Shown here piece after piece: positions 1 to 46,604 of a stretch of DNA of 64,000 nt. The notes below the pieces were generated by a model. The model had not been told where the DNA came from. It worked only from the letters and a program-made list of their open reading frames with translations, and made no database searches. Numbering within the stretch: position 1 is the first letter of the stretch; every line of letters begins with the position of its first letter. The DNA is taken from assembly GCF_016026235.1 (NCBI RefSeq), contig NZ_CP065613.1, one strand, 5' to 3'. The stretch comes from Escherichia coli (lineage in GTDB: Bacteria; Pseudomonadota; Gammaproteobacteria; Enterobacterales; Enterobacteriaceae). The position numbers and the translations under genes are program-made.

Positions 1-694
1 TATAAAGATAAAAATGCCCTTCATGTTGTGCATTTTTATCTCGACCCAGCAGGCCTTCACCTAAATAAATTGCTGTCGTTGATGCTTTTGTGCCTGAGTC
101 CGACACCTTTTCCCAGCCATTACCAACATTGTAATAATGATTGCCCAGTACCCGGCAAATATAGGTCCAGCCACGGGAGCGGAGCTGTTGGAACCATCGC
201 CCCTGAAAACCGGCATCTGTAATAACAATGACATCAGTCCCGGGGGAAAAGCACTCAGCAAGCGATTCCAGAAAACGCTCATGTACATCTGCATTCGCTG
301 TCTGTGATGATGGAACGACACAACTCATCAACGGTAAAGAACGCCCGTCACATGCCAGGCTTGCCCGCAAAAGCTGAAAACGAGAGGCATGATAAGCACT
401 CCAGTCAATGAGTATCACAACACGAGACATTCCCCGCGTAATCTTTTGGGTAATTCGCTGAAAAATGGTGGAAACCTCATTTTGCAAATGTCGATTCCCC
501 AACAGTCGATCCACCCGCTTTATTTTGTTTTTAACTGATGCCGTACCGGTTAAATGACGCCCGATACTGGTAAGTGTGAGGGAAGCGCCATTTATTACAG
601 CATTAGTTGCGTCAATCAGTGATTTTTGACGGTAAAGATGCAAAGGGGCCAGTATGTTGTTAAGGAAATTTTGGCATAATGAACGTGCAGGCAT
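1..694 (-). CDS. IS4-family (IS10-like) transposase, N-terminal 231 codons; gene continues past window start
   Basis: Manual translation of minus strand from ATG at 694 gives an open frame to position 1; N-terminus aligns residue-for-residue in length and motif pattern with recalled IS10 transposase (IKRxDRLLGNRHL, VxLxDWS, DAGF). Not in ORF track because stop lies outside window. Confidence 0.6.
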   Translation of the reverse strand, partial: MPARSLCQNFLNNILAPLHLYRQKSLIDATNAVINGASLTLTSIGRHLTGTASVKNKIKRVDRLLGNRHLQNEVSTIFQRITQKITRGMSRVVILIDWSAYHASRFQLLRASLACDGRSLPLMSCVVPSSQTANADVHERFLESLAECFSPGTDVIVITDAGFQGRWFQQLRSRGWTYICRVLGNHYYNVGNGWEKVSDSGTKASTTAIYLGEGLLGRDKNAQHEGHFYLY

Positions 695-880
695 AGTGGT
701 GATCTCCTTGAAATTGTTAGCACAATCAATTAGATCACATCTCACTATGCCTGTCTTGTTTTCTGGGGATTCCTCAGGGGTGTTCCCTCCTCCGGTTCGC
801 TGTTCTGGTGCTGTTTATCTTCAGTCTGTCGCACTTCATTTTCCGTTTTTTTGACTTCATTTGAGGAGATATGATGACCG
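1..880 (-). mobile_element. IS4-family insertion sequence, partial; inner end somewhere in 745-880
   Basis: Transposase gene above; terminal inverted repeat not identified, so boundary is approximate. Confidence 0.4.
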
Positions 881-2352
881 GGAATCCATTTCGGATCATT
901 CGGGTCGCTAATCCCTTCAACAAATTCTCCGCGAGAGGCAGCCAGTAATTTGTCTGCATCGACAGGATTTTTGGGCGGAATGTTTTTCCGGGCTTCATGG
1001 AGTTCTGCCCGCAGTTCCTGATATTTCTCATCAACAGCATTTACCTGTGACTGAGCATCCAGCGGCTGCGTGTCCTGATGATGTTCAGTTGCATCCGGTT
1101 CCACTGTTTCAGCCGTTGCCTGTTCATCTGCCATTGCGCAAGATGGTTGCGGTTTTTCTTCATCATCCTGTTTTCCTTCTTCTGTTACTCGCTGCGGCAT
1201 CGGGGCAGAGGAGCGACCGCAGGCAATATCCACGATTTCCGGATCAGGGTTGGCATGATCGGTTTCAGTCAGTACCTTGTTCAGATATTCAGTGACGTGC
1301 GCGGGGATGACCTCGATACCAATCGGTGCTTCTTTCACTGACGCAACCACGATGGCGCGGGAATAATCCATCCCGCCAGGCATGGTGATGAATTTGTCGC
1401 GGAAAACAGAAAAGGGCGGTTTATTTTCAGTGATAATTTCCTCAATGCGTTTAGCGTGTGCCGGATGAAGATTATAAATATCCACGTCCATTGAACGGGC
1501 CAGTACGCCAGTGGCTACGTCGCGCGCCAGCGACGTCAGATCGTGGACGAAACCTTCGCCGCGATCGGTGAGGTTCCCGCCGCCAGCATTAGCACCGGAA
1601 GCCGTGCGAGTGATACGCGAAACACGATTTCCTTTCATCCACTCTTTTGTCAGCAGACCGCGATCGGTGTAGTTGGCATCCAGATATGCTTCGAAAAAAG
1701 CAGTCATCAGTCCCAGATTTGAATTGCCAGGATTAGGGAAAACTTTGTCAGTATCACGCACGAGTTTGTGGAGGTCGCGAATCTCCAGCGGGTCGAGCAG
1801 ACTGGTTTTATGCGAAACAGCCAGAGCAGTAACAGCCGGTAGTTCTTCATCCCGAGCAATGTGTAATGCCTGGAGTTCGTCGCGTGAAACGTGCGTTACC
1901 GGTTTTTCGCTGCCGTGTTGCGCAAGCCAACGAATGGGCAGTTCCTGACCGGAAACTGGCAGGAGCATGTTCTCCTCAATTTCTGTCATGTCTTCGCCGT
2001 TGACGTTGGTATTGTCAGTGCTGGCTGGTTTGTCCTGAACAGAGGGAGAAGATGCGATAAATACCATTGTGATGCCATCTTCCCCGCCTTTTTCGTAACG
2101 GTTGCAGAATTCCGTATCAAACACGCCTTCTGGTGGGAGGTCATCAACAACGGGCAAATTGACGCGAACAGGTTTTTTAAAGTCATCTTCATCGTAGCCA
2201 GCATCGTCAATCGCAACAGCACCACGGGAGATGGCAATGGATAATTTTTTCGCTTCAGCCCAGTAAAAACCGCCTTTAATACCGAGGCGTTTTCTTACTT
2301 TGTCATTTTTTGCTTCGTAATACAGTGGGTAAACTTGTTTATCGGTGCTCAT
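745..2352 (-). CDS. recE: RecE-like exonuclease VIII, N-terminal region (about 535 aa); C-terminal nuclease domain absent, 3' end apparently read into IS-proximal sequence
   Basis: 535-aa ORF in the Rac-like leftward recombination operon; sequence resembles recalled RecE N-terminal/central region; full RecE is about 866 aa. Confidence 0.45.
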
Positions 2353-2375
2353 TGTTTTTTAACCTCAACTCATAT

Positions 2376-2672
2376 TCAGATTGCATAAAAGAAACGAACT
2401 GATGATGCGATATGAGAGAGTTCTTTCAGTCGTTGATAACTGATACCGTATTTCTTGTCAGCCTCTTCAATGCGAGCTGTGAGTAATGCAATTTCTTTAA
2501 TGGCACATACACAACAATCAAATGTTCCCAGAACGTAACCGTCATCAATAATTACCGTGACGTTTTCTTTTTGGGAAATCTGAATGAAACTATGTAATGT
2601 ATTCCCACATTTAAATTCGGCGAGAGAATCGTTAATAACATCAAGTTCAATTTCACATTCAATAATGCTCAT
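2376..2672 (-). CDS. hypothetical protein (RacC-like position), 98 aa
   Basis: ORF track 2376..2720; internal ATG at 2672 preceded by AAGGAA Shine-Dalgarno; immediately upstream of recE-like gene. Confidence 0.45.
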   Translation of the reverse strand: MSIIECEIELDVINDSLAEFKCGNTLHSFIQISQKENVTVIIDDGYVLGTFDCCVCAIKEIALLTARIEEADKKYGISYQRLKELSHIASSVRFFYAI

Positions 2673-2746
2673 TGCTGTTTCCTTTTTTAAGGTTGAGTGA
2701 ATCCCTGCCATTGCTGGCATAAATTCAGTTTCGAATATTCAGTTAA

Positions 2747-3034
2747 TTAAAGTTCGTGTGCCATCTTGTCTTTTTCGGCACAAGCTGCACTGCAATATTT
2801 TCGTTTCTTTCTGGCAATCATGTTTCCATGCATATAAATAAGCTCGCCAGTAAAAGCTTTTTCAGGTAAAAACTGTTTATTGCAGAGATGGTAATCACAT
2901 TGTATTAAATCCAGGTCACCTTTTTGCTGGAGAATTTTTCTGATTCTCCACAGCCATTTTTTAATCCCGGTATGACTGATGGTCTGCCTGAGGGCAGGTG
3001 TAAAACAATAATCAAGCATGGGGTTCATATCCAT
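2747..3034 (-). CDS. hypothetical small Cys-containing protein
   Basis: 95-aa ORF in operon context; no family recognised. Confidence 0.3.
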   Translation of the reverse strand: MDMNPMLDYCFTPALRQTISHTGIKKWLWRIRKILQQKGDLDLIQCDYHLCNKQFLPEKAFTGELIYMHGNMIARKKRKYCSAACAEKDKMAHEL

Positions 3035-3044
3035 AGCTCCATTT

Positions 3045-3590
3045 TTATTTTAAGGAAAGCAACTGCTCTACGGTCATGTTTTTAATTGCGCCCCGGTTTA
3101 CAAGAGTCCAGCCCTGTTTTTCCAGATAAAACCGGAAAGTCTCCAGGGTACAGACCAGTGCGCCATCAGGAACGGTTTCGGTGAATTCGACATTGCCGAA
3201 TTTGTCGAAGTGAACAACCAGAGTGCGACCATCACCCGGAATCATCTTGTCAGCAGGTGGGGTGTTATTCTGGCGCAGTTCGGCCTCCATGCGGTCGAAC
3301 TCAGCAATGTAGGCTTCCTTGAATGTGGCGGCTTTTTTGCCCGTGAAGCCCATCACCAGGAAAACGAAGCCGTTTTTGGTGATTTGGTAGGCGTTATAAG
3401 AATTGCCGCGGTGTTCGAATTTAACCCGCGAAAAGTTGCTGGTTAAAAATAGTTCAGAACATTCGAGGGATTCTATTTTTTGAACAACATGGTGATGCTG
3501 CTTGCCAAAAAACTCAGCAATCGAAATAGAAGTAGTGACGGCGCGACCATTTTCGATGGTTACGTCAGGGTGAGAAAGGGTAGTAGCCAT
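3045..3590 (-). CDS. Rha-family phage regulatory protein
   Basis: Rha-like N-terminal domain from MATTLSHPDVTIENGRAVTTSISIAEFFGK; ATG at 3590. The 98-codon in-frame extension up to 3884 is low-complexity and contains a terminator, so not taken as coding. Confidence 0.55.
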   Translation of the reverse strand: MATTLSHPDVTIENGRAVTTSISIAEFFGKQHHHVVQKIESLECSELFLTSNFSRVKFEHRGNSYNAYQITKNGFVFLVMGFTGKKAATFKEAYIAEFDRMEAELRQNNTPPADKMIPGDGRTLVVHFDKFGNVEFTETVPDGALVCTLETFRFYLEKQGWTLVNRGAIKNMTVEQLLSLK

Positions 3591-3754
3591 AATGACATCC
3601 TCAAGTGATAAGTTAATTAACTCACCAGCAGAGGTGCTAATCTCATGGGTGGTGAGACGCACAGGGTTAGCACTACCGGTCACTCGAGAACCCGGCCAGC
3701 CTTGCGGCTGCCCCGCACGCCTCACCATAATTTGAATGTGGCTGTGCATTACGC

Positions 3755-3781
3755 ATAAAAAAACCGCTTCAGCGCGGTTAT
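3755..3781 (-). terminator. Rho-independent terminator (minus strand)
   Basis: Minus-strand hairpin AACCGC-GCTGAA-GCGGTT followed by TTTTTTT. Confidence 0.4.
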
Positions 3782-3905
3782 GCGCTCGAGTAACTTTCGG
3801 GGTGCTAATCCCGGCACCCGTTTTATGAGGTGCAGGTGCACTATAATTCCACCCGTTCTGGTTTTCAATAGCTACATTCAACATTTTCTCTTTCCTTTCA
3901 TCACC

Positions 3906-4060
3906 GAAGTGAATTTTGTGATGCGGTGCCTGGTGCCTCCAGGTGACGTTAACCAGTTAACAATTACAGTCGGCTTTCCCACCCAAAACAATAAGGACTA
4001 ACATGACTTTTAACTGTGCCGCGTGCGCTTAGCCGCATTCACCGCATCACAAAATTCACT
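3906..4060. repeat. Perfect 22-bp inverted repeat pair (3906-3927 and 4039-4060) flanking 111 bp
   Basis: AAGTGAATTTTGTGATGCGGTG at 3906-3927 and its exact reverse complement at 4039-4060; encloses palindrome GTTAACCAGTTAAC. Confidence 0.7.
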
Positions 4061-4291
4061 TTAAAAAGGGCGGACATCAGCCAGCAATTAAACCGATGCC
4101 GCCAACTGGTACTTCACACAGCAATGTCGTTATTTACAACCGGAAGCGCACTCCCACCATTTAAATTTCACAGACAAGACCGACTCTTTATGAATACCGG
4201 AAATGCGCCTTCGTGTTGTGCCCGGTTTTATTTCACCACCTCCGGGCTTTGGTGGTATCTTTACTGAAGTTCTCACACAACCAGTAAGGAA

Positions 4292-4615
4292 ATGAATATG
4301 CCAACGTATCTCGCCAGAGTAGAACTATATAATGCTGAGCCAGAGGATTACGAAGGGCTTCATAAATATATGCTCTCACTAGGATTCAGGAGAACGATCC
4401 CCCATGGAGATGGTTCGTATAATCAACTCCCGGACGGAACTTATGTTTCCGAAAAGGGCGGTGATATTTATCAAATTCGCAGCCAGATATCTGACTATGC
4501 AGACCGACTATCCGGGTATCGCGCGTCTGTTTTGTTTGCGAATTCAGTCAATGCGCATGGTATTTATACCCCGCCAAGACCCGGTGAATATCCTGCACGG
4601 CCTTCTGCTTTGTAG
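4292..4615 (+). CDS. hypothetical protein
   Basis: 107-aa ORF with AAGGAA Shine-Dalgarno before ATG. Confidence 0.4.
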   Translation: MNMPTYLARVELYNAEPEDYEGLHKYMLSLGFRRTIPHGDGSYNQLPDGTYVSEKGGDIYQIRSQISDYADRLSGYRASVLFANSVNAHGIYTPPRPGEYPARPSAL

Positions 4616-4767
4616 AAGGCTTCTTCGCTATCATAATCGCCAGATTCCAGCGCTTCTTTAGCCAGCCAGATGCGTGCCCCAGTGCCTGCATTTGGCTCCA
4701 GTTGCTGGAGGCGTTTTGCATCTTCTAGGAGTAGAGCGATAACGTGTTTTAATTCTGTCTCGTTCAT
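4564..4767 (-). CDS. hypothetical small protein (67 aa)
   Basis: ATG at 4767 preceded by AGGTGAG; track start at 4776 is a GTG. Confidence 0.35.
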   Translation of the reverse strand: MNETELKHVIALLLEDAKRLQQLEPNAGTGARIWLAKEALESGDYDSEEAFYKAEGRAGYSPGLGGV

Positions 4768-4768
4768 T

Positions 4769-4924
4769 TTACTCACCTGAATGTCTTCCCAACCAACGAC
4801 GTGCGCCAGCTTCGGTTTTAAACGTTTTGCTTTTGGTATACGTCATGGCGGTGAATGTGCCGTCTTGATTGGGAAACACGCCACATACCAGAGATTCGTT
4901 GTTGCCAAGATCGATAGTATTCAT
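4769..4924 (-). CDS. small prophage protein (YdaG-like), 52 aa; alternative start at 4987
   Basis: ATG at 4924 with AGGGGA upstream; immediately downstream of repressor gene as ydaF/ydaG are in Rac. Confidence 0.4.
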   Translation of the reverse strand: MNTIDLGNNESLVCGVFPNQDGTFTAMTYTKSKTFKTEAGARRWLGRHSGE

Positions 4925-5229
4925 GTTGACCCCATTTCCCCTTAACGCCGGGTGGCGGAACGTTTTATCTACTGCGCTTTGTATCAATCAACAACTGCCG
5001 TCATGTTCGTATGCCTCAGGCTGGCTACTTAGCCCTGTTCAGTGACTGGATAACTCGAGGTATTGTCCTGCCGTTCTCTGGTGGGGCGTTGTTTGGATAT
5101 GCTTATTAAACACAATTTGTTTTCTTATGTCAACACGTAATGTGTTTTATGGTGGGTGTCATATGATGATGCTACAAAAAAGCCCGCTGATAGCGGGCTG
5201 ATTGGCATATTACTGTGATAGCAAGATCA

Positions 5230-5649
5230 TTATTCCGGTGGGGGATTATCTTTAATCCTGCCTCTCAAATATTTTTCTACATACTCATCGATTTCTTTTA
5301 GCCGGACTTCAAATAGCTCAATCATTCGTTGTTGTTCTGAGCCCGGTAGCTGGTTAAACAACTCAAGAAGTTTTCGTTGGGATTCATTTAACCACAATTC
5401 AGAAGATTCCTGTTCTCCAAAGAGGAGCTCAGGAGGAGATATGCCAAGTGCCTTTCCCAATACGACAGCGTCATGTACTCCAACATTTCTGCTGCCCGCC
5501 TCATAGTTACCTATACGCGATTGCGTCCATCCGCAGATTTCAGCAAGTTTTCCTTGAGATAAACCAAGCTTCTGCCTGCGCTCTTTAAGACGCATTGCAA
5601 TTTTGTCATTGAGCCTACTAGCGGCAATTTTTTCGTTTTCTTTTTCCAT
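5230..5649 (-). CDS. HTH (XRE-family) prophage repressor, cI/RacR-like; no S24 peptidase domain
   Basis: HTH motif LGLSQGKLAEICGWTQSRIGNYE; divergent from cro-like gene; AAGGA Shine-Dalgarno. Confidence 0.7.
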   Translation of the reverse strand: MEKENEKIAASRLNDKIAMRLKERRQKLGLSQGKLAEICGWTQSRIGNYEAGSRNVGVHDAVVLGKALGISPPELLFGEQESSELWLNESQRKLLELFNQLPGSEQQRMIELFEVRLKEIDEYVEKYLRGRIKDNPPPE

Positions 5650-5660
5650 TGCATCCTTGT

Positions 5661-5721
5661 ATCACGAATCGTGATTTACATAAAACACAAAACAGCTTGA
5701 CTATATAACACAAGGTGTGTT
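5661..5721. promoter_or_regulatory. Immunity-region operators and divergent promoters
   Basis: Perfect palindrome ATCACGAATCGTGAT (5661-5675); inverted repeat AACACA-agg-TGTGTT (5707-5721) overlapping a TTGACT -35-like hexamer (5697-5702) upstream of the cro-like gene. Confidence 0.45.
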
Positions 5722-5745
5722 TAAAATTGTCATCGGAGGTTTTCA

Positions 5746-5988
5746 ATGAACAAAATTTCAACATATCGAAAACAGCTTGGGCTGTCTCAAAGACAACTTG
5801 CTGTTCAGTTAGGGTGGATACAAAGCCGACTGGCAAATTACGAAGCAAATTTTCGTACCCCTGGACTAGAGGAGTGCAGAAAAATTGTTTCTACCCTTAA
5901 TCGGCTTGGCGCTCATTGTGGACTTGACGATGTATTCCCCCCAGACGGTAAGCATAGCGAAAACAGCATAGGAGCGGTTGATTCATGA
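5746..5988 (+). CDS. Cro/YdaS-like HTH regulator
   Basis: HTH LGLSQRQLAVQLGWIQSRLANYE; GGAGG Shine-Dalgarno; divergent from repressor. Confidence 0.65.
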   Translation: MNKISTYRKQLGLSQRQLAVQLGWIQSRLANYEANFRTPGLEECRKIVSTLNRLGAHCGLDDVFPPDGKHSENSIGAVDS

Positions 5989-6407
5989 AAATCAGGCATG
6001 AGCACATCGAATCAGTGTTGTTAGCCCTGGCAGCCGAAAAAGGGCAGGCGTGGGTCGCTAACGCAATTACTGAAGAATATCTGCGCCAGGGGGGAGGTGA
6101 ATTGTCTCTGACACCAGGCAAGGACTGGAATAATCAGCAGAACATCTATCATCGTTGGTTAAAAGGTGAAACGAAAGCGCAAAGGGAAAAAATTCAGAAA
6201 CTGATCCCTGCGGTTCTGGCAATTCTTCCGCGCGAGCTGCGTCACCGACTCTGCATCTTCGATACCCTGGAACGCCGTGCATTACTGGCGGCGCAGGAAG
6301 CGTTGAGTACGGCAATTGATGCGCATGATGATGCAGTCCAGGCCGTTTACCGGAAAGCGCATTTCAGCGGCGGCGGGTCTTCCGACGATTCTGTCATTGT
6401 TCATTAA
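5985..6407 (+). CDS. YdaT-like prophage protein
   Basis: 140 aa, same length and position as Rac YdaT; start overlaps cro-like stop. Confidence 0.5.
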   Translation: MKIRHEHIESVLLALAAEKGQAWVANAITEEYLRQGGGELSLTPGKDWNNQQNIYHRWLKGETKAQREKIQKLIPAVLAILPRELRHRLCIFDTLERRALLAAQEALSTAIDAHDDAVQAVYRKAHFSGGGSSDDSVIVH

Positions 6408-6470
6408 GCAAAAGTTTCCATGCTGTTTGTGCTTATTCTAAGCAACCGGGCAGCATCATACGGGGCAATT

Positions 6471-7619
6471 ATGGCCGCATTACCATACATGCAACTGTAC
6501 ATAGCTGATTACCTGGCTGACACCATGCATTTGTCAGCAGAGGAGCACGGCGCGTATTTGTTGCTGATGTTCAATTACTGGCAAACAGGAAAGCCAATAC
6601 CCAAAAACAGGTTGGCAAAAATTGCCCGTCTGACTAACGAGCGATGGGTTGATGTTGAACCATCCTTGCGGGAGTTTTTTTGTGATAACGGCGACGAATG
6701 GATGCATCTTCGGATTGAGGAAGATCTGGCATCTGTCAGAGAAAAATTAACCAAAAAATCAGCCGCAGGAAAAGCATCTGTTCAGGCCAGAAGAAGCAGA
6801 AAGGAAGCAGATGTTCAAACAAAACAAGAGAGAAATTTAACAGGTGTTCAAACAGATGTTGGAGTGATGTTCGAACATGATGCCAACACAAAGGCAACTA
6901 ATAAAGATACAGATAAAGATCTAAAAACAGATCTAACCCATCCCAAACCCTTCCCTTCCGGAAGGGAGTTTCGGGATTTTGTGGCTGGAGTGCTTGAGGG
7001 GAGATTATCTGGCGGTACTGCAGCGGAATTTTGTAATTCTGCGGTGGTTGCGTTGCAGGCTGCTGGCCTGGATGTCTGTCGTGAGTATCCGGTGCCAGAG
7101 CGTGGTGACGGTTGCGGAGGGCGGATTGATATCGTCGTGACTGACAGGAACGGTGTCCGGTGTGGGATCGAGCTTGACCGAAATTCTCCGCGACAGAAAT
7201 CACTGCTCAAAATCGGTGCTGTTGAAACCGGGATATGTGTCTTGCGGCGCAGTGATATCGCAAGGCACACCGAGCAGGGAATTCTGGTTATCGGTGGGGC
7301 TGTTCGCCAGAAAAAATTTGACCCGTTGTCAGTTGATCTGCCCGACTGGTTGCCAGAAACACTCTGGCATGAGTGGGTCCAGTTCAGGCAGGCATTGCGA
7401 AAACCGATTCGAACGGAGCAGGGCGCTAACGGGGCGATACGGGAACTGGAAAAATTCCGTCAGCAGGGTTTTACACCTGAGCAGGTGATTCGACACAGCA
7501 TCGCCAATGAATACCAGGGTCTGTTCGCGCCGAAAGGTGTTCGGCCTGAGACGTTGCTCCGACAGGTTAACACCGTCTCGTTGCCGGACAGTGCGATCCC
7601 GCCAGGCTTCAGGGGGTAA
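6471..7619 (+). CDS. Replication initiation protein (DUF1376/YdaU-like) with extended central region
   Basis: N-terminal YMQLYIADYLADTMHLSAEEHGAYLLLMFNYW resembles DUF1376; ATG at 6471 chosen over track start 6420. Confidence 0.55.
   Translation: MAALPYMQLYIADYLADTMHLSAEEHGAYLLLMFNYWQTGKPIPKNRLAKIARLTNERWVDVEPSLREFFCDNGDEWMHLRIEEDLASVREKLTKKSAAGKASVQARRSRKEADVQTKQERNLTGVQTDVGVMFEHDANTKATNKDTDKDLKTDLTHPKPFPSGREFRDFVAGVLEGRLSGGTAAEFCNSAVVALQAAGLDVCREYPVPERGDGCGGRIDIVVTDRNGVRCGIELDRNSPRQKSLLKIGAVETGICVLRRSDIARHTEQGILVIGGAVRQKKFDPLSVDLPDWLPETLWHEWVQFRQALRKPIRTEQGANGAIRELEKFRQQGFTPEQVIRHSIANEYQGLFAPKGVRPETLLRQVNTVSLPDSAIPPGFRG
6811..6935. repeat. Iteron-like repeats plus AT-rich tract inside replication gene (putative ori)
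   Basis: ATGTTCAAAC (6811), GTGTTCAAAC (6845), ATGTTCGAAC (6867) followed by AT-rich AATAAAGATACAGATAAAGATCTAAAAACAGATC. Confidence 0.4.
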
Positions 7620-7625
7620 CAGACC

Positions 7626-8372
7626 ATGAAAAATATTGCGACAGGAGGCGTTCTGGAGCGTATCCGCAGACTGACCCCACCACATGTAACCGCCCCATTC
7701 AGAACGGTTGCGGAGTGGCGCGAGTGGCAACTTGCTGAAGGCCAGAAACGTTGCGAGGAGATCAACCGCCTGAATCGTCAGTTGCGGGTGGAAAAAATCC
7801 TGAACCGCTCCGGCATCCAGCCGTTGCACCGGAAGTGTTCGTTTGCGAATTACCGGGCGCAGAACGACGGTCAGCGACATGCACTGAGTCAGGCGAAATC
7901 CATAGCTGACGAACTGATGACAGGCTGTACGAATTTTGTGTTCAGCGGTAAGCCCGGCACCGGAAAAAATCATCTTGCAGCCGCGATTGGCAACCGGCTG
8001 ATGGCGAAGGGGCGTAGCGTGATTATCGTCACCGTGTCCGATGTCATGAGCGTGTTGCATGAGAGCTACGACAACGGCAAATCCGGTGAAAAATTTTTAC
8101 AGGAGCTTTGTGGTGTTGACCTGCTGGTCCTGGATGAAATTGGCATGCAGCGGGATACGAAAAACGAGCAGGTGGTACTGAACCAGATTGTTGATCGCCG
8201 GACGGCATCGTTACGCGGTGTGGGGATGCTGACAAATATTAACCATGCAGCGATGAATACACTTCTCGGCGAGCGGGTGATGGATCGCATGGTCATGAAC
8301 GGCGGGCGCTGGGTGAATTTTAACTGGGAGAGCTGGCGTCCGAATGTTAGCCATTCGAGGGTTGTTAAGTAG
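7626..8372 (+). CDS. DnaC-like helicase loader (IstB-like AAA+ ATPase)
   Basis: Walker A GKPGTGKNHLAAAIG, Walker B LLVLDEIG; follows initiator gene. Confidence 0.75.
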   Translation: MKNIATGGVLERIRRLTPPHVTAPFRTVAEWREWQLAEGQKRCEEINRLNRQLRVEKILNRSGIQPLHRKCSFANYRAQNDGQRHALSQAKSIADELMTGCTNFVFSGKPGTGKNHLAAAIGNRLMAKGRSVIIVTVSDVMSVLHESYDNGKSGEKFLQELCGVDLLVLDEIGMQRDTKNEQVVLNQIVDRRTASLRGVGMLTNINHAAMNTLLGERVMDRMVMNGGRWVNFNWESWRPNVSHSRVVK

Positions 8373-8386
8373 TTTCAGGAGGATTT

Positions 8387-8809
8387 ATGGCGAAACCTTT
8401 TACTCCCGAACAGCGGGAAGAACTGAAGACGCGAATTGTGGAACTCGTGCATCAGGACGGTCGGGTCACGATTCGGCAGTTGTCAGATGAAACAGGTATC
8501 AGTCGTGCGTCTGTCGGTCGCTTATGCATGGAACTGGTCGCAAGTGGTGATGTATATAATTCTGGCTACGGGGTATTTCCCTCTGAACAGGCTCATAAAG
8601 ACTGGCAAAACGCCCGCAAAAAGCTATCGAGGGTAAAGGTGAAGAAACCGGTTGTGGTTGATCCTGACCTTATCTGGTCATTACCAGACGGAGAAATACG
8701 CCGCTACGACAGGCGCCTGAATATAATCTGTCGCGAGTGCCGGAAGAGCGAAGCTATGCAGCGCGTGCTGGCGTTTTATCAGGGGAAATTTCAGGAGGCG
8801 GTACTGTGA
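8387..8809 (+). CDS. hypothetical prophage protein (possible winged-helix)
   Basis: 140-aa ORF directly after dnaC-like gene. Confidence 0.45.
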   Translation: MAKPFTPEQREELKTRIVELVHQDGRVTIRQLSDETGISRASVGRLCMELVASGDVYNSGYGVFPSEQAHKDWQNARKKLSRVKVKKPVVVDPDLIWSLPDGEIRRYDRRLNIICRECRKSEAMQRVLAFYQGKFQEAVL

Positions 8810-8852
8810 GTAAAATTAGCTATGAAGTGGTCAACAAAAACTGGCCACCGAG

Positions 8853-10000
<1,148 letters not shown>

Positions 10001-10119
10001 TATGGCACCTGTGTTGTTCTGAGGTGAGCATATCACCTCTGTTCAGGTGGCCAAATTCAGTAAACCACTTCACTATCAGGCTTCAATTACCGCTGGTATT
10101 CGCATCAAAGGAGAGGAGC

Positions 10120-10476
10120 ATGGAAATAAAACCAGAAGATGAGTTAAGCAATATCGTTTTATTTCCGGTAAAAGAGGATGACCCACGTAATCAGGTTAAT
10201 TTTCTTTATGAACCATCGGAAAGACCATATTGCCATCACGCCTCTGTCCGGGTTGACGAAAAAGAGCGTCAGGTCCGCTGTAAAATCTGCGGTGCGGTTG
10301 TGGAGCCGTTTGACTGGATGCTCTCTGTGGCAAAAAGAGAAACCAGACTGGCAGATGATGTAAGGCTATTGCGCCAGGAGGAACAGGAAAGGCGGAGAAA
10401 TATAGAAAAGCTGATACAGATTGAGCGTAACGCGAAAGCGCGGATACGCAGGGCGACAAAATCCAGAACTGAATAA
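10120..10476 (+). CDS. hypothetical protein with Cys-rich segment and basic coiled-coil tail
   Basis: ATG at 10120 after AAAGGAGAGGAG; 118 aa. Confidence 0.5.
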   Translation: MEIKPEDELSNIVLFPVKEDDPRNQVNFLYEPSERPYCHHASVRVDEKERQVRCKICGAVVEPFDWMLSVAKRETRLADDVRLLRQEEQERRRNIEKLIQIERNAKARIRRATKSRTE

Positions 10477-10568
10477 TTAAATTTAGCACTGTTAAAAATT
10501 TAATCCTTAACCGGAGGGATTTCTGCACCCTCAAATCATCAGGAGACCGCCCGAAAGGGCGGTAATGA

Positions 10569-10787
10569 ATGGTTACATTATTTAGAAAAAAATATCCGCG
10601 AAAGAGTAGAACAACAGAATTCCTGTTTCTCATTCTGTTTATCGTGTTGATGACACCGATATCCCCACTAATTTTTGTCTGGATAATCGGAAAAATAATT
10701 GAGCCAGTTATTGAATTGTATAACGACGTGGTATGGGCGTCATTCAACACACTGCACAATAAAATTAATCCGTATAAGGAAAGCTGA
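10569..10787 (+). CDS. hypothetical small membrane protein
   Basis: 72-aa ORF with a hydrophobic core (two predicted transmembrane segments). Confidence 0.4.
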   Translation: MVTLFRKKYPRKSRTTEFLFLILFIVLMTPISPLIFVWIIGKIIEPVIELYNDVVWASFNTLHNKINPYKES

Positions 10788-10788
10788 T

Positions 10789-11154
10789 ATGGCACTGACG
10801 AAAAAACAACGTGCAGAACTGCGCATGAAGTTCGGTGGTCGCTGCGCTTATTGCGGCTGCGAACTTGGCGAAAAGTGGCATGCAGACCATGTAAAACCGG
10901 TCATTCGTTTTGATGGAAATATGCTTCACCAGGAACGTGACGATATATCCAACATGGTACCAGCATGCCACCCATGCAATCTGCACAAGCATTGCAGTAG
11001 CCTGGAAGATTATCGACGAATTATCAGTGATGGTCGTCGTGAATTCCTTGCGTCCGGGAAAGGCAAAGCGCTGGTTCGTATGGGATTGGTTGAAATGAAA
11101 TCTGACCCGGTTGTGTTCTGGTTTGAAAAATATCAAGAAGGGGCTACGGCATGA
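10789..11154 (+). CDS. HNH endonuclease
   Basis: CAYCGCEL...HADHVKP...CHPCNLHKH HNH motif; ATG at 10789 after TAAGGAAAG. Confidence 0.7.
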   Translation: MALTKKQRAELRMKFGGRCAYCGCELGEKWHADHVKPVIRFDGNMLHQERDDISNMVPACHPCNLHKHCSSLEDYRRIISDGRREFLASGKGKALVRMGLVEMKSDPVVFWFEKYQEGATA

Positions 11155-11816
11155 CCACTATTACCAAAGAGCGACTGCAATGGCTGGCTAACATTTCTGG
11201 CCGCGATGATATTGACGATATAGACGGCGGTGAAATTCGTGAACTGGCGCTTATCGCTCTGGCATCACTGGAAGCAGAGCCTGTAGCGGAATGCATTGTT
11301 GAAGATGGGGGCATGTGTATTGACGGGTTCGGTGAGTATGTGGGTCACTCGCTGCCTGATGGAATGCATGAGCTTTATGCTGCCCCGCGAATGCGACAAC
11401 CTGATGGATGGAAAGCCGTAGCTGTAGCGTGGAAGGTGACGTTTACTCAAGTTGACCAGGAATCTAATACGTTCACTGCTATATATTTTGACAAAGCGGA
11501 AGTTGAGCGTTGGGTACGACTGCATAAAGCATGTGATTTTCGGGCAGATATAACACCGCTTTACGCAGCGCCGGCAGTGCCGGTTGCAGTAAACGACGAC
11601 ATGGCTTACGCATTCCATCACGCACTGTCAGATTCATCGCTTGGCTCTGATGAAATCGAAGAAATTAAAACCGGTTTGCGTGCTGCCTTTGCCAACGTCA
11701 CTATCCAACCAGAGCCGATAGTGCCGGATGAAATCGGGCCAAACGATAGTAATACGTTTGATTATGTTGATGGCTGGAACGCCTGCCGCGCTGCCATGCT
11801 TAAGGGAGATAAATAA
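11151..11816 (+). CDS. hypothetical prophage protein
   Basis: 221-aa ORF, start overlaps HNH stop. Confidence 0.5.
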   Translation: MTTITKERLQWLANISGRDDIDDIDGGEIRELALIALASLEAEPVAECIVEDGGMCIDGFGEYVGHSLPDGMHELYAAPRMRQPDGWKAVAVAWKVTFTQVDQESNTFTAIYFDKAEVERWVRLHKACDFRADITPLYAAPAVPVAVNDDMAYAFHHALSDSSLGSDEIEEIKTGLRAAFANVTIQPEPIVPDEIGPNDSNTFDYVDGWNACRAAMLKGDK

Positions 11817-12181
11817 TGATTAATCGAACCAAACTGGAGCACATTCTCGAATATGCCAGGCAGCAGAAATGTATTGGGCAACTTTGTAAAATTCCACCAG
11901 GAGATATGGTTGAAATCGTGGAAATGGCCATGCGTAAGGCTGGCAACTCTCCGGTAACTCCGGCTGGCTGGATAAGCTGTAGTGATGCAGTTCCTGCTGA
12001 ATATTGCGATGTGATTCTTCTCGATGATCTCGGGAATGTATTCCCCGGTTCCTGGGATAAGGTTTTTTGCCCCACTCGTGGCGGGAATAAGATGGCTTTT
12101 GTGGACAAAGACGGCGTTGAAGTAGAGAGCTCAACTCACTGGATGCCGCTACCGGAACCACCGCAGGAGGTGAATCAATGA
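11816..12181 (+). CDS. DUF551-like prophage protein
   Basis: C-terminal FVDKDGVEVESSTHWMPLPEPP resembles DUF551. Confidence 0.55.
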   Translation: MINRTKLEHILEYARQQKCIGQLCKIPPGDMVEIVEMAMRKAGNSPVTPAGWISCSDAVPAEYCDVILLDDLGNVFPGSWDKVFCPTRGGNKMAFVDKDGVEVESSTHWMPLPEPPQEVNQ

Positions 12182-12261
12182 CCTGGCCTGAGGCATTCAC
12201 CACGGTAGGAATTGCGATGGCGGTGGCGCTGGTGGTGTATTCGATTTGCCGTTGGGGTTAA
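12178..12261 (+). CDS. possible 27-aa hydrophobic peptide
   Basis: ATGA overlap with upstream stop; MTWPEAFTTVGIAMAVALVVYSICRWG; directly followed by a terminator. Confidence 0.25.
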   Translation: MTWPEAFTTVGIAMAVALVVYSICRWG

Positions 12262-12266
12262 CAAAC

Positions 12267-12298
12267 AAAAACCCCGGATTGATGGTCCGGGGTTTTTG
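12267..12298 (+). terminator. Rho-independent terminator
   Basis: CCCCGGA-TTGATGG-TCCGGGG hairpin followed by TTTTT. Confidence 0.6.
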
Positions 12299-12479
12299 AA
12301 GGAAACAAAACAGAAACAGCAATTGCCGTTACCTGTTGTTACCATGGCAAGTAAACGTATCTCAGGCGAGCGCATTGCGCCGTTCTGACGCAGATAAACT
12401 AGCCTGGATAGATGGTGCTGGCAATAAAAAATAGCGTTTTCTTATCGGTGTCGGTAAGATTGCTGCGGGTGCTTGAGGC

Positions 12480-12635
12480 TGTCTGCCTCGGGCATGTCAC
12501 TGTAAGGCAGACAGAGAAAAGCCCCAGTTAACATTACGCGTCCTGCAAGACGCTTAACATTAATCTGAGGCCCAATCTATGTCTCACAAATGTAGGTTAG
12601 CCTCTTACGTGCCGAAAGGCAAGGAGAAGCAGGCT
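12480..12635. promoter_or_regulatory. hok mRNA leader with stem-loops; expected location of sok antisense RNA
   Basis: Inverted repeat GTCTGCCT...AGGCAGAC (12481-12512); 9-bp hairpin GGCGGGAGA-GTAA-TCTCCCGCC downstream at 12800-12822. Confidence 0.35.
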
Positions 12636-12791
12636 ATGAAGCAGCAAAAGGCGATGTTAATCGCCCTGATCGTCATCTGTTTAACCGTCATTGTGACGGC
12701 ACTGGTAACGAGGAAAGACCTCTGCGAGGTACGAATCCGAACCGGCCAGACGGAGGTCGCTGTCTTCGTAGACTACGAATCTAGAGAGTAA
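12579..12791 (+). CDS. mok: mok-like in-frame extended reading frame overlapping hok
   Basis: 70-aa ORF ending at the hok stop, as MokC extends HokC in E. coli. Confidence 0.4.
   Translation: MSHKCRLASYVPKGKEKQAMKQQKAMLIALIVICLTVIVTALVTRKDLCEVRIRTGQTEVAVFVDYESRE
12636..12791 (+). CDS. hok: Hok/Gef-family type I toxin
   Basis: MKQQKAMLIALIVICLTVIVTALVTRKDLCEVRIRTGQTEVAVF is near-identical in pattern to HokD/RelF; AAGGAG Shine-Dalgarno. Confidence 0.8.
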   Translation: MKQQKAMLIALIVICLTVIVTALVTRKDLCEVRIRTGQTEVAVFVDYESRE

Positions 12792-13069
12792 GAGTGACCA
12801 GGCGGGAGAGTAATCTCCCGCCACCTTTGATGTGTCAGGCATCCTCAACGCACCCGCACTTAACCCGTTTCGGCGGTTTTTTTTGTTGCGTGCTGAATAC
12901 GCAGGGTGAAAAATAACCATATATTTGATTATATACACAACAAAAAATAAAAGTCATTGTACTTGCACATTAAACAATCAAATATACGGCGTGAAATAAA
13001 TGTTTTTCAGATTAATATTTTTGTCTCTATGTGGATATAACCGTTTGTACTTATAAACCTGGAGGCATC

Positions 13070-14794: not shown

Positions 14795-14883
14795 CTCAAT
14801 CTGTTATCCGGGGCTATATTCCTCACGCGCCAGCAAAATCTGGCGTCGGGATTGGCGTCCCGGATGTTTACGGAGCGATATGA

Positions 14884-14904
14884 GACGCGCCCGCGTCTTT
14901 TTTC
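14884..14904 (+). terminator. Hairpin plus T-run downstream of Q (possible tR'-like terminator)
   Basis: GACGCG-CCC-GCGTC followed by TTTTTT. Confidence 0.4.
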
Positions 14905-15066
14905 ATATCGTTTGCACAGTCTCATTCGCGATTTATGGCGGGCTGTGTGGGGGAGCCGAAAGGCTCGCCGGTTTCCGTACCCGGTTACGCCAACCCTGCA
15001 CAGTTCGCCACCAGTTCGATTGGCGTCGTCGGTGGCGATAATTTCCAAATGTACGGAGTTATCGTT

Positions 15067-15832: not shown

Positions 15833-15909
15833 GGCCCTTTAGCTCAGTTGGTCAGAGCGAGCGACTCATAATCGCCAGGTCGCTGGTTCAAGTCCAGCAA
15901 GGGCCACCA
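15833..15909 (+). tRNA. tRNA with CAU anticodon (Met or Ile2, ileZ-like)
   Basis: Manual cloverleaf: acceptor GGCCCTT/AAGGGCC, anticodon loop CTCATAA, 3' CCA. Confidence 0.8.
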
Positions 15910-15910
15910 A

Positions 15911-15987
15911 CCACCACTAGCTCATCCGGATAGAGCATCAACCTTCTAAGTTGACGGTGCGAGGTTCGAGTCCTCGGTGGTGGGCCA
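15911..15987 (+). tRNA. tRNA-Arg (UCU)
   Basis: Acceptor CCACCAC/GTGGTGG, anticodon loop CTTCTAA, T-loop TTCGAGT, 3' CCA. Confidence 0.75.
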
Positions 15988-15989
15988 GC

Positions 15990-16065
<76 letters not shown>

Positions 16066-16068
16066 TAT

Positions 16069-16143
<75 letters not shown>

Positions 16144-34163: not shown

Positions 34164-37575
<3,412 letters not shown>

Positions 37576-40494: not shown

Positions 40495-41352
40495 CTAATT
40501 GGGTGATAACAGATCCTGTGTATGGGCGTTTCCCTTTGTGCGTGCGTTGATGCTGGTAACGGTAAACGTCATGATGAACACGACCGCGAATAAGACGACA
40601 ATCGTCGGAGCTGGTGCGCTGTCGATAAAAAAGGACAGCCAGACACCAGTCATTGACACTATTACCGATATGCCAGTCGCCAGTAGGAGCGCAATATGAA
40701 AGCGTTGTGTCAGGAGTACTGCAATGGCGCCAGGCGCAATGAGCAGAGAAATAGAGAGAATGATACCTACTGCTTTCAGCGTCGCCACAATGGTCAGGGA
40801 AACCATGCACAGCAGCCCATAATGCAGCCATCTCGTATGCAAACCGCTTACCTGCGCCTGTTGATAATCAAAGCTGAACAGCAAAAAATCCCGCCATTTT
40901 ACGCTAATAACAAGTGTAACCAGCCCGGCAATAATCACCGTCTGGATTATATCGCCGATGGTTATCCCGAGCATGTCGCCGAAAAGAATATGGTCAAGAT
41001 GTACGTCTGGTTTGATTGCAATATACAAGATCAGACCTGCGGCAAACATGCCAGAAAAAACAATCCCCATAACTGTATCTTGCTTGATTCGGCTGTTGTC
41101 TTTCAGGTATCCCGTCGCCACCGCGCAGAATACTCCGGCGACGAATGCCCCTGTAGCCAGAGGTAACCCCAGAATCCAGGTAAGCACGATGCCAGGAAAA
41201 ACCGCATGACTCATCGCGTCACCCATCAGTGCCCAACCTTTCAGGACCAGAAAGACCGACAGCAGCGCACAGGGTATGGAAACTACCAGTGAAATCAGCA
41301 GTGCGTGACTCATAAAGGTGAACTGCAGTGGCTCCAGTAATAATGCCATCAT
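40495..41352 (-). CDS. sitD: Mn/Fe ABC transporter permease SitD
   Basis: 285-aa polytopic membrane protein; last gene of sitABCD; 4-bp overlap with sitC. Confidence 0.85.
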   Translation of the reverse strand: MMALLLEPLQFTFMSHALLISLVVSIPCALLSVFLVLKGWALMGDAMSHAVFPGIVLTWILGLPLATGAFVAGVFCAVATGYLKDNSRIKQDTVMGIVFSGMFAAGLILYIAIKPDVHLDHILFGDMLGITIGDIIQTVIIAGLVTLVISVKWRDFLLFSFDYQQAQVSGLHTRWLHYGLLCMVSLTIVATLKAVGIILSISLLIAPGAIAVLLTQRFHIALLLATGISVIVSMTGVWLSFFIDSAPAPTIVVLFAVVFIMTFTVTSINARTKGNAHTQDLLSPN

Positions 41353-42206
41353 GAGCGATCCTCCAGCGCTTTATGCGCACGCCGACGATTTGCCAAAAGT
41401 CCATGGGTGGGCGCAAATACAAATGCTAAAAGAAACAGCAGTGTCTGCGCCACCACGATGATTCCACCTGTCGCGCCGTCCAGAAAGTAACTGACCCACG
41501 CGCCGAGGAAACTGGTTACACTGCCAATAGTTACAGCAATTATGAGCAGGCGGGGAAAACGATCGGTTAACAACCATGCTGTTGCACCGGGAGTCACCAC
41601 CAGACAGATCACCAGAAAGGCACCAACCGTTTGCAGCGCCGCAACGGTCGAAACCGACAGCAGGGTGAAGAAGAGGATTTTTAATCTGCCCGGATGTAAT
41701 CCAATAGCACGGGCGTGATTCTCGTCGAAAAAGGTCACCATAAGATCTTTCCATTTGAAAAAAAGCACGATGATCGAGAGAATGCCAATGATAGTGAGTT
41801 GCAGGATATCCGCCGGATCGATTGCCAGAATATTGCCCAGGACGATGGTCTGAATGTTCACGGATGTCGGGTTCAATGACACCATAAACAGCCCCAGGCC
41901 AAAAAAGGACGAGAAGATCAGGCCGATGATGGCATCTTCTTTTAAGCGGGTGCGTTGGTTAAGAAACAGCATGCTGCCCGCTGCCAGTCCGCCGGAAAAG
42001 AAGGCTCCCAGAGAAAACGGAAGCCCCAGCATATATGCCCCCGCAACACCCGGGACAATAGAGTGCGACAGCGCATCGCCAATCAGCGACCAGCCTTTTA
42101 GCATCAGATAGCATGACAGGAAAGCGCAGAGACCGCCGACCATTGCCGAGACCCACATCGCATTGAGCATATATTCATAGCTGAAGGGTTCCAGTAGCAC
42201 GTTCAT
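41349..42206 (-). CDS. sitC: Mn/Fe ABC transporter permease SitC
   Basis: 285-aa ABC-3 family permease. Confidence 0.85.
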
Positions 42207-43030
42207 CTTGCTTCCCTCTGCACCGCTGACGGTCGATGTGCCACAAAAGGGCGTTCATCGTCAGTAATAATGCTTTCTTCCGAGCCGTTAAGTGTGACAT
42301 GGCGCAGTACGCCGCTAAAAGCCAGCTCCAGGTTCTCGGCTGTAAAAGTGGTGTCTGTCGGCCCGCTTGCCAGGACGGTGCCTTTGACCATGACCGTATA
42401 ATCGCAAAATGTCGTGACTGAGCCGAGATTGTGCGTTGAGACAAGCATCGTTTTGCCTTCCGCGCGTAACTCCCTCAACAGGCTGATGATTTTCGCTTCG
42501 GTTTTCACATCAACGCCGGTAAAAGGTTCATCCAGCAGGATCACATCACCCTGCTGTGCAATCGCTCTCGCCAGAAAGACGCGTTTCTTTTGTCCACCGG
42601 AAAGCTCGCCGATTTGACGATGGCGAAAATCCACCATATCGACACGTTCCAGCGCATCGGTGACAATCTGACGATCCCTCTTTTTGGCTATACGCAACAT
42701 ACCCATATGCCCATAGCGGCCCATCATCACCACATCTTCCACCAGTACAGGAAATGACCAGTCAACCTCTTCTGACTGAGGGACGTAGGCAACCAGGTTT
42801 TTCTGTAGCGCCTGTCGCGTGGGAATACCCAGAACAGATATCTTTCCGCTGGTCAGACGCACAAATCCCATAATCGCTTTAAACAACGTCGATTTTCCGG
42901 AACCGTTTACCCCAACCAGAGCGGCAATAGATCCACTTGGTACTGTGAAGGATGCATCGCGCAGTGCTGTGTGCCCGTTACGCCAGGTGACAGTAACATC
43001 ATTAACGACAATGCCTGCAGATTGCATCAT
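42203..43030 (-). CDS. sitB: Mn/Fe ABC transporter ATP-binding protein SitB
   Basis: Walker [10 protein letters not shown], signature LSGGQKKR, Walker B ILLDEP. Confidence 0.85.
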
Positions 43031-43944
43031 TATTTCTCCCTTTTCCCGGCTTTAATTCCCTGTACCAGCGTACTGGTAGTAACCTTAAGAAGGTCGATAT
43101 ACGTAGGTACCGGGCCGTTTTCTGTGCTCAGGGAATCGACATAGAGCACACCGCCGTAGTGTGCGCCGGTTTCACGCGCAACCTGACGCGCTGGTTTATC
43201 GGAAATCGTACTCTCGCTAAAGACTGCCGGGATATGATTTTTCTTAACTATATCAACAACCTTACGTACCTGCTGCGGTGTTCCTTGTTGATCGGCATTA
43301 ATCGGCCACAGATAAAGCTCTTTTAGCCCCAAATCGCGTGCGAGATAAGAAAAAGCCCCTTCACTGGTGACCATCCATCGCTGATTCTCAGGGAGTTCCG
43401 TAATCTGCTTACGCAGGGGGGCAAGGGTTTGGGTAATCTTGGCTTTATAAGTATCGGCATTACGTTGGTAGGTTTGTGCATTTGCCGGATCGTATTTTAT
43501 CAACGCATCACGAATATTATCGACGTAAATCAGAGCATTATCTGGCGACATCCATGCATGGGGATTAGGTTTGCCCTCATAGGGTCCTTCGGTGATCCCT
43601 ACTGGCGTCACACCCGAAGAGACAATTACTTCTGGAACCCCATTGAGATGCTGGTAAAAGCGTTGGAACCACAATTCCAGATTCATACCATTGGCGAGAA
43701 TCAGTTGTGCCCCCTGCGCACGTTTAATATCGCCAGGGGTAGGCTGATACTCATGAATTTCTGCACCAGGCTTGGTTATGGATGAGACTTCTGCAGCATC
43801 TCCAGCCACGTTTTTGGCCATATCCGCGATGATGGTAAATGTTGTAATGACCTTGAATTTTTCAGTTGCACTTGCCTGAAATGCGATCGAGCAGGTGAGG
43901 GCGAGGCACCCCAAGAGCATGGTTACTTTTTTTATTGAGTGCAT
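43030..43944 (-). CDS. sitA: Periplasmic Mn/Fe-binding protein SitA
   Basis: 304 aa, signal peptide, cluster A-I substrate-binding family. Confidence 0.85.
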
Positions 43945-43976
43945 AATTTAGTACCTATAGTGAGCAAAATTAGAAC

Positions 43977-43998
43977 AAACATAGCAACGGCTATGTTT
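43977..43998. promoter_or_regulatory. MntR box upstream of sitA
   Basis: Perfect inverted repeat AAACATAGC-AACG-GCTATGTTT, 33-54 bp upstream of the sitA start codon. Confidence 0.6.
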
Positions 43999-44020
43999 TA
44001 TAGCATAACCTATACAAAAT

Positions 44021-44039
44021 GAAAATAATTATCATTAAC
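44021..44039. promoter_or_regulatory. Fur box upstream of sitA
   Basis: GAAAATAATTATCATTAAC matches Fur consensus GATAATGATAATCATTATC at 15 of 19 positions. Confidence 0.5.
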
Positions 44040-44497
44040 AGCTTTGAGGCCTAAAACAGGGATTAGGTTGTTTCCTGCTGGCGACATGATATTGAGGAAA
44101 AAAGTAGAGCAGCTATTAGGCTTTGAAATGACTTTATGAGGAAAATTGTTGATGGCAAAAATGGGGCAAAACGCTGTAGAAGGGGCAAAAAAGGGGCAAA
44201 AAAAGAGTGGGTTATCGTAGCTTATTGTTGTCGCTGATAATGTTTAACATATTGAAAAATAAATAAAATACTTATGAGTCAGATAGTTGTGATTTTTGCC
44301 CTTACTTGTTCAGATTGTATTGTTCTTTCTTGCTAATTTCTTGATTTTGCGACATTTAAAAGCGACTCAATTCGTTATATGGCATCAGAAGAGTATGCGT
44401 CATGCCGGAACGCCCAGCATAAGAAATCTGATATAAAAACTGTGGCGTGTATGGTACGGATTAGAGGGGAAAATGTCAGCACATTTGCGAAATGAAT

Positions 44498-44524
44498 CAA
44501 AAAGCCCGCAGCAATGTGCGGGCG
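44498..44524 (-). terminator. Rho-independent terminator of uspF
   Basis: Minus-strand GCCCGCA-CATTGCT-GCGGGC followed by TTTTT. Confidence 0.5.
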
Positions 44525-44530
44525 TTAGTG

Positions 44531-45046
<516 letters not shown>

Positions 45047-45075
45047 TTAGATCAAAGGAGGAAGAATAAGCAGAA

Positions 45076-45102
45076 AAAGCCCGCCATAACAGCGGGCAGG
45101 AG
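45076..45102 (-). terminator. Rho-independent terminator of ompN
   Basis: Minus-strand GCCCGC-TGTTATG-GCGGGC followed by TTTTT. Confidence 0.5.
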
Positions 45103-45105
45103 GAT

Positions 45106-46239: not shown

Positions 46240-46548
46240 TGAATAAATCCTTTAGTTATTTTATTTGCCTTTTATCCCCATTTCGGGGAGTGAAAACATC
46301 CTAAAGGAGAAGTTCAGTTAGCCGATAAATATCATTTGTTACGCCTTAAGTAAAACCTTAATCAAAAAATTCCTCTGAAATGATAATAAGTCTGGTGAAT
46401 GTATCGAAGATAATACATACAAAATAAAAATTATACTTTTAATTTTCTATACGTTATTCTGCGCGGGTTATATGCCTTTATTGTCACAGATTTTATTTTC
46501 TGTTGGGCCATTGCATTGCCACTGATTTTCCAACATATAAAAAGACAA

Positions 46549-46580
46549 GCCCGAACAGTCGTCTGGGCTTTTTTTTAGAA
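46549..46580. terminator. Bidirectional hairpin terminator between ydbK and ompN
   Basis: AAGCCC...GGGCTT hairpin flanked by A-run and T-run. Confidence 0.45.
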
Positions 46581-46604
46581 TTGGATAATCCTTATCCAGA
46601 GCAT

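Follow-up and report, generated by a model that had tools for sequence, protein, structure and literature searches.

Simple insertion of ISEc60 into a probable nuclease-less recE relative in a decaying Escherichia coli prophage at the Rac site

The stretch of DNA analysed here (the window) covers 64,000 nucleotides of Escherichia coli contig NZ_CP065613.1 (assembly GCF_016026235.1), and begins inside an insertion sequence (IS) that adjoins a recE-like gene. The best explanation, to which we give a probability of about 0.88, is that ISEc60 split a natural nuclease-less relative of recE by a simple insertion, and that no RecET system was knocked out. On this explanation, one ISEc60 transposition would have hit a 646-codon gene of the early left operon, between codons 525 and 526, in a lambdoid prophage that occupies the Rac (ttcA) site. 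The target gene would encode a RecE N-terminal module of approximately 590 aa, a disordered linker and a conserved two-helix tail of approximately 40 aa replacing the nuclease. The insertion would have produced a chimeric 535-aa open reading frame (ORF) of 525 native and 10 IS-encoded codons, with loss of the tail, and the orphaned 3' remnant would afterwards have gained a 1-bp frameshift. Both components, ISEc60 and the recE-like gene, are already present in public annotation. The prophage also carries an IS911-like insertion (at approximately 8823-10072) and a frameshifted tail-tip gene J, and these lesions together with the ISEc60 split indicate a decaying prophage. The event itself is an ordinary case of an IS entering a Rac-site prophage in decay.

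The right-hand 777 bp of ISEc60 occupy positions 1-777 on the minus strand and are 100% identical to ISEc60 copies in several E. coli genomes and plasmids. The complete element is 1294 bp long, with about 60% of it inside the window and the remaining 517 bp beyond. Its transposase frame starts at 694 on the minus strand (ATG 692-694) and runs out of the window, as the preliminary description had it, with the first 231 of 396 codons inside (positions 2-694). With these 231 codons the NCBIfam profile transpos_IS4_2 scores 196 bits (cutoff 152; 1e-57), and Pfam DDE_Tnp_1 also matches; the full 396-aa DDE transposase gene is found in L003, the contig described below. The terminal inverted repeat CTGAGGAATCCCC at the transposase-start end lies at 765-777 (minus strand), directly at the gene junction, and is the sole match within the window. 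A complete ISEc60 in L002 terminates in CTGAGGAATCCCC on one side and in CTGAGGGATCCCC on the opposite side, over a distance of 1294 bp. The ends of IS10A are CTGAAGAATCCCC and CTGAAGGATCCCC, and the ISEc60 repeat agrees with them at 12 of 13 positions. Over 93% of its length, the transposase has 36% identity with those of IS10A and ISVsa5. With this kinship and these terminal repeats, the element can be assigned by sequence to the IS4 family as an IS10-like insertion sequence, ISEc60, and the earlier assignment to that type is correct. It shares with IS10 the IS10-type terminal repeats, a 9-10 bp target duplication, a length of about 1.3 kb and a single DDE transposase; however, at only 36% transposase identity it is IS10-like, not IS10. 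Promoter and terminator scans of window positions 1-3000 returned background level only.

The recE-like ORF runs from 2352 to 745 on the minus strand (535 aa). In a megablast analysis of window positions 1-2400, recE-like DNA was found in 3841 E. coli genomes, and in the nine closest of these the match begins exactly at 778. Since non-IS homology starts at 778, codons 526-535 and the TAG stop (positions 745-777, minus strand, by direct reading with the IS boundary taken from the comparisons) are IS sequence, as had been suspected for the last codons. Native codons 1-525 of a RecE-N-type gene occupy 778-2352 (minus strand) and are 99.7% identical to the 646-codon allele that E. coli O121 carries uninterrupted. 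No record in the megablast search joined the IS part to the recE-like part, and a scan of genome contigs gave no exact match to the junction. The identical chimeric protein is encoded on 6 contigs of public assemblies, with four distinct places listed, each in a different assembly. An assembly artefact was rejected, since the same chimeric ORF recurs in several assemblies. In the profile searches the 535-aa protein matches Pfam Exonuc_VIII (PF06630, residues 52-189, E = 1e-36) and positions 1-523 of 877 in the NCBIfam RecE equivalog NF007259 (980 bits against a cutoff of 1269). The PD-(D/E)XK domain PF12684 was absent in the Pfam search, in agreement with the preliminary description of an ORF without the nuclease domain, and the C-terminal tail motif discussed below is also absent from this protein, whose last residues are encoded by the IS.

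An exact look-up of the 535-aa protein led to L003, a 4.68-Mb contig that encodes it and is 99.99% identical to window positions 1-12351 (12.35 kb), with window position 1 corresponding to L003 position 12352. L003 contains the whole of ISEc60 (11576-12869), bordered by GGGAACACCC on both sides. One copy of this target-site duplication lies in the window at 778-787, where the plus strand reads GGGTGTTCCC and the gene strand GGGAACACCC, and the second, seen in L003, falls outside the window. The uninterrupted allele (L001, E. coli O121) has a single copy of GGGAACACCC. Thus, ISEc60 entered by a simple transposition that duplicated 9-10 bp of the target and left no adjacent deletion. One nucleotide at the IS boundary is ambiguous, so that the duplication is 9 bp if one G/C is counted to the IS and 10 bp otherwise. 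The insertion point is between codons 525 and 526 of the 646-codon gene.

The gene is uninterrupted, in the same gene order, in the complete genomes of E. coli O121 (L001), CFSAN029787 (L010) and FDAARGOS_943 (L011). In L001 it is a 646-codon ORF. The stop of the gene overlaps the start of gam, and in these genomes PGAP labels it as a pseudogene ('incomplete; missing C-terminus'). The 646-aa protein aligns to K-12 RecE over residues 40-585 only (77% amino-acid identity), and past residue 585 it diverges into a 55-aa tail (QQLTIAALQGLCANPA...). PF12684 did not match this allele, although it was found in the controls, K-12 RecE (residues 615-850) and a 1042-aa RecE. Against NF007259 the protein covers profile positions 1-596 of 877 with 1064 bits (cutoff 1269). 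The segment comprising the tail plus gam is present at a coverage of at least 80% in about 25 of 5426 complete E. coli genomes, as two sequence types that are approximately 83% identical to each other. The tail has no family in Pfam, NCBIfam or PHROGs, and a PDB sequence search gave no match.

Modelling the 646-aa protein in AlphaFold2 with a 66-sequence alignment gave a mean pLDDT of 76. The confidence exceeds 90 over roughly residues 1-400, helices follow at 437-473, the linker 491-591 is of low confidence and contains the IS site (aa 525), and the tail is modelled as two helices at 590-634 (block-mean pLDDT 70-86). All domains that are folded with confidence (residues 1-473) are still present in the 535-aa product.

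Past the IS, L003 continues with the last 121 codons of the same recE-like gene and then with gam (PF06064), an AAA_24 ATPase gene, DUF1187, xis, int and the host gene ttcA, the attachment site of Rac. The 121-codon remnant has the sequence of the intact allele except for a 1-bp deletion (A5 to A4) that shifts the frame, and still holds the tail motif, out of frame; this deletion could be a sequencing error instead of a real frameshift. The gam and AAA_24 ORFs are intact. The ATPase (365 aa) belongs to phrog_1366 and has a weak Sak4-like match. No recT was found beyond the IS in L003 up to int and ttcA, and no PD-(D/E)XK domain was found in the L003 DNA beyond the IS. The expectation that recT might lie on the far side of the element is therefore not borne out, gam, AAA_24, DUF1187, xis, int and ttcA being there instead. 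Nor does the earlier conclusion hold that the IS inactivated a prophage recombination module of the RecET type, as no such module existed here.

The nuclease-less form is not confined to this lineage. When 1.84 billion cluster representatives were searched exhaustively, 228 related clusters emerged. Among the 66 long representatives scanned with Pfam, the N-terminal region is accompanied by PD-(D/E)XK in 17, an Rv2179c-like 3'-5' exonuclease in 11, RecT in 3 and RNase_T in 2; the remaining ones have only PF06630. The tail motif, L-x-[YW]-x-Q-Q-L-x-I-A-A-[LV]-x-G-L-C-A-N-P-A ... P-x-[MI]-A (approximate consensus L-T-Y-x-Q-Q-L-T-I-A-A-L-Q-G-L-C-A-N-P-A ... D-[IL]-P-x-M-A), is found at the extreme C-terminus of 22 representatives (490-730 aa, clusters at 50% identity), with tails 35-57% identical to that of the query. 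Queries with nuclease domains matched none of these 22 and matched 20 other representatives. The presence of the tail in 22 diverged clusters, none with a nuclease, marks the nuclease-less form as an established gene type. An origin of the tail form as a recent deletion product was rejected, as the motif is conserved across these diverged clusters. K-12 RecE, the RecE forms of 1042 aa and the proteins with the tail diverge from one another just after a common '...ETGE'. The N-module is thus joined to different C-terminal modules in different proteins, and the form with the tail is old and conserved. The gene in the window derives from this tail-bearing, nuclease-less family, of which its 535-aa product, by sequence, is no longer a complete member.

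More distant relatives extend this group. The core of the 646-aa protein (query residues ~226-490) is 32% identical to the tail-bearing protein P0129 (E = 2e-25), and the tail is also shared. P0129 and P0117, another tail-bearing protein, carry the precomputed Pfam labels YdfE_N and YdfE_C (PF27430 and PF27432), although our Pfam scan returned neither, even for these two proteins. P0129 in turn has a weak match to K-12 YdfE (E = 4e-7). BLASTP found no direct similarity of K-12 YdfE to the protein in the window; YdfE is a distant member of the same nuclease-less superfamily, linked via intermediates only. K-12 ydfE, in the cryptic prophage Qin, is likewise IS-truncated, being a pseudogene cut by IS2E. 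Its N-terminal domain is YdfE_N, whereas that of the window protein is PF06630 Exonuc_VIII, and the IS and the prophage also differ. For the tail, a word-indexed search for homologues yielded nothing longer than short fragments, most of them from Shigella, and full-length tail-bearing proteins came to light through the exhaustive representative search; tblastn of the tail against a phage collection gave no match.

K-12 Rac RecE (exonuclease VIII, 866 aa) is encoded at the same chromosomal site as the window gene, beside ttcA, and at the same operon position, downstream of ydaE/racC-like genes. K-12 RecE has a PD-(D/E)XK nuclease at residues ~564/615-866, which the gene type in the window lacks, and its residues 40-585 form an N-terminal region of unknown function (PMC11611040). 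The gene order in K-12 Rac is recE-recT-ralR; in contrast, the window lineage has no adjacent recT or ralR, and in place of the nuclease and recT it has the helical tail followed by gam and the AAA_24 ATPase. Nuclease-less 'RecE family' proteins also occur ahead of lambda Red genes, as in E. coli M8, where WP_129541925.1 is an intact annotated protein of 672 aa that has the same N-module without the nuclease, the same '...ETGE' breakpoint, a C-terminal tail 76% identical to that of the 646-aa protein, and gam directly downstream. In M8, a prophage at the yebY site, gam is followed by bet-exo, ralR, xis and int, whereas in the window lineage the AAA_24 gene comes next and ISEc60 interrupts the recE-like gene. 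The gam-AAA_24 pair is also found after kil, without a recE-N gene, in phiES15, an inducible phage of Cronobacter.

The preliminary description had taken the ORF for a copy of full-length recE (about 866 aa) truncated by the IS, with the nuclease and recT lying beyond the IS or lost, and the RecET module inactivated. Such a gene would give an ORF like the one seen, covering only 523 of 877 RecE equivalog positions and ending in IS-derived codons. This reading is refuted by L003, where the IS is followed by 121 codons of a nuclease-less gene, gam and AAA_24 with neither recT nor PD-(D/E)XK; the target duplication indicates a simple insertion without an adjacent deletion, and the uninterrupted alleles are 646 aa long and lack PF12684. 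We consider it very improbable. What stands of the truncation is that the IS cut the ORF to 535 aa; the lack of the nuclease is native to this gene type. The PGAP flag raises a different objection, that the 646-codon form is itself the dead remnant of a recE deletion and that ISEc60 was a second hit in a functionless gene, and the shared '...ETGE' breakpoint with K-12 RecE and the 1042-aa forms is compatible with a recombination joint. However, the ORF is open up to the stop that overlaps the gam start, the M8 homologue of 672 aa is intact and annotated as a protein, and the AlphaFold2 model gives the tail two helices at a block-mean pLDDT of 70-86. The tail motif is also strongly conserved in 22 clusters (35-57% tail identity), in each case at the very C-terminus and in none alongside a nuclease. 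A dead remnant thus has a small probability, though not as small as that of a truncated full-length recE.

Somewhat more weight, but still with the odds well against it, falls on a mild insertion, in which the 535-aa chimera would keep the activity of the N-module and read-out from the IS would still express gam and AAA_24. The high-confidence folded regions (residues 1-400 and the helices at 437-473) lie upstream of an insertion in a disordered linker, the transposase and the recE-like gene are on the same strand, and the gam and AAA_24 ORFs are intact in L003. Against this, full-length members always have a C-terminal module, either nuclease or tail, which suggests that one is required; the remnant has begun decaying, as its frameshift indicates; and the IS911-like insertion and the frameshifted J suggest relaxed selection on the prophage. 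The preferred reading therefore remains that of a natural nuclease-less gene split by ISEc60.

For the split gene, the IS separated the folded N-module from the conserved tail, with ten IS-encoded residues in its stead. Since every full-length family member has some C-terminal module, we infer that the gene is inactivated or at least crippled; going by the structural model, the 535-aa product might retain activity. The 1.3-kb insertion is probably also polar on the downstream gam and AAA_24 genes. As the gam-AAA_24 pair occurs without recE-N in phiES15, by analogy gam and AAA_24, and not RecET, are the likelier candidate for the recombination/anti-RecBCD module of this prophage.

The N-terminal region of RecE is listed as a domain of unknown function in a 2023 review. 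One tentative proposal, for which we see clearly less than even odds, is that this region is an autonomous phage module that has been shuffled widely and whose fold has no solved relative, working with any available DNA-end-processing activity. It could do so in cis (PD-(D/E)XK, DEDDh exonuclease or RecT) or in trans, via the helical tail QQLTIAALQGLCANPA beside Red-type or gam/AAA_24-type modules, in which case the window allele would represent a natural mutant of this adaptor with the tail deleted. Full-length RecE reportedly enhances linear-linear recombination. The comparisons provide evidence for nuclease-less RecE-N proteins with the tail as a genuine, widespread family that annotation pipelines tend to flag as pseudogenes. 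For this gene type, pseudogene calls of the kind 'RecE family, missing C-terminus' are unsafe. It is equally unsafe to infer an inactivated RecET system from such genes, as the conserved form precedes gam-bet-exo or gam-AAA_24. The nuclease-less form presents the unexplained N-terminal region of RecE as a separable module, and may thereby offer a route to its role.

The orphaned 3' remnant of the recE-like gene split by ISEc60 lies past the element, outside the window, and is seen in the near-identical genome L003. At L003 13000-13010 a run of five A residues in the intact allele is reduced to four (A5 to A4), and this 1-bp deletion shifts the frame of the remnant upstream of the conserved tail, the C-terminal two-helix segment of the nuclease-less family. 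A 75-aa remnant ORF of the same kind in Shigella boydii carries the annotation 'exodeoxyribonuclease VIII', and comparable short fragments are found in S. sonnei and S. flexneri.

Other lesions are present in the prophage. An IS3-family (IS911-like) element at about 8823-10072 of the window sits in the replication/early-right region, with 94% identity to the IS911 copy of the E. coli O121 locus L001; the corresponding gene in L003 is at 2352-3499. The lambda-type tail-tip gene J appears as two plus-strand ORFs of 821 and 275 aa (34167-36632 and 36748-37575), broken by at least one frameshift around 36610-36680. The prophage is probably tail-defective. At 40495-46584 of the window, the tail-fibre genes give way directly to a metal ABC transporter of sitABCD type, with ZnuA and ABC-3 domains, together with an OmpN-like porin and the MicC sRNA. 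Host genes resembling ydbK, ydbH, tynA and paaZ come next, and this adjoining gene content places the prophage in the Rac neighbourhood of K-12.

Two sets of isrK and C4 antisense RNAs, which are P1/P7-type immunity RNAs, are found in the window: one on the minus strand (3645-3833) and one on the plus strand (14814-15015), the latter accompanied by an a1b1 target. The first set falls within the 5' third of a 279-aa 'Rha/Ash' ORF (3045..3884), and the Pfam Phage_ASH match of this ORF (aa 14-105) coincides exactly with it. Thus, the 5' part of the ORF may be translated RNA-gene sequence, and the true Rha start may be near Met-99. Immediately downstream of the second set is a prophage-borne cluster of four plus-strand tRNA genes (Met-CAT, Arg-TCT, Thr-TGT and Gly-TCC; 15833-16143). 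The prophage also carries a sok antitoxin RNA of the hok/sok type I toxin-antitoxin system (12467-12641, plus strand).

The ISEc60 event has a parallel in the Qin prophage of K-12, where ydfE (L014 6079-7549), a distant relative of the nuclease-less RecE-N family, is an IS2E-truncated pseudogene. Cronobacter phage phiES15 carries a gam and AAA_24 ATPase pair after kil (L015 4211-5601), the ATPase having 85% amino-acid identity, and this inducible phage has no recE-N gene. The occurrence of the pair without recE-N points to gam-AAA_24 as a self-contained module that takes the place of gam-bet-exo.
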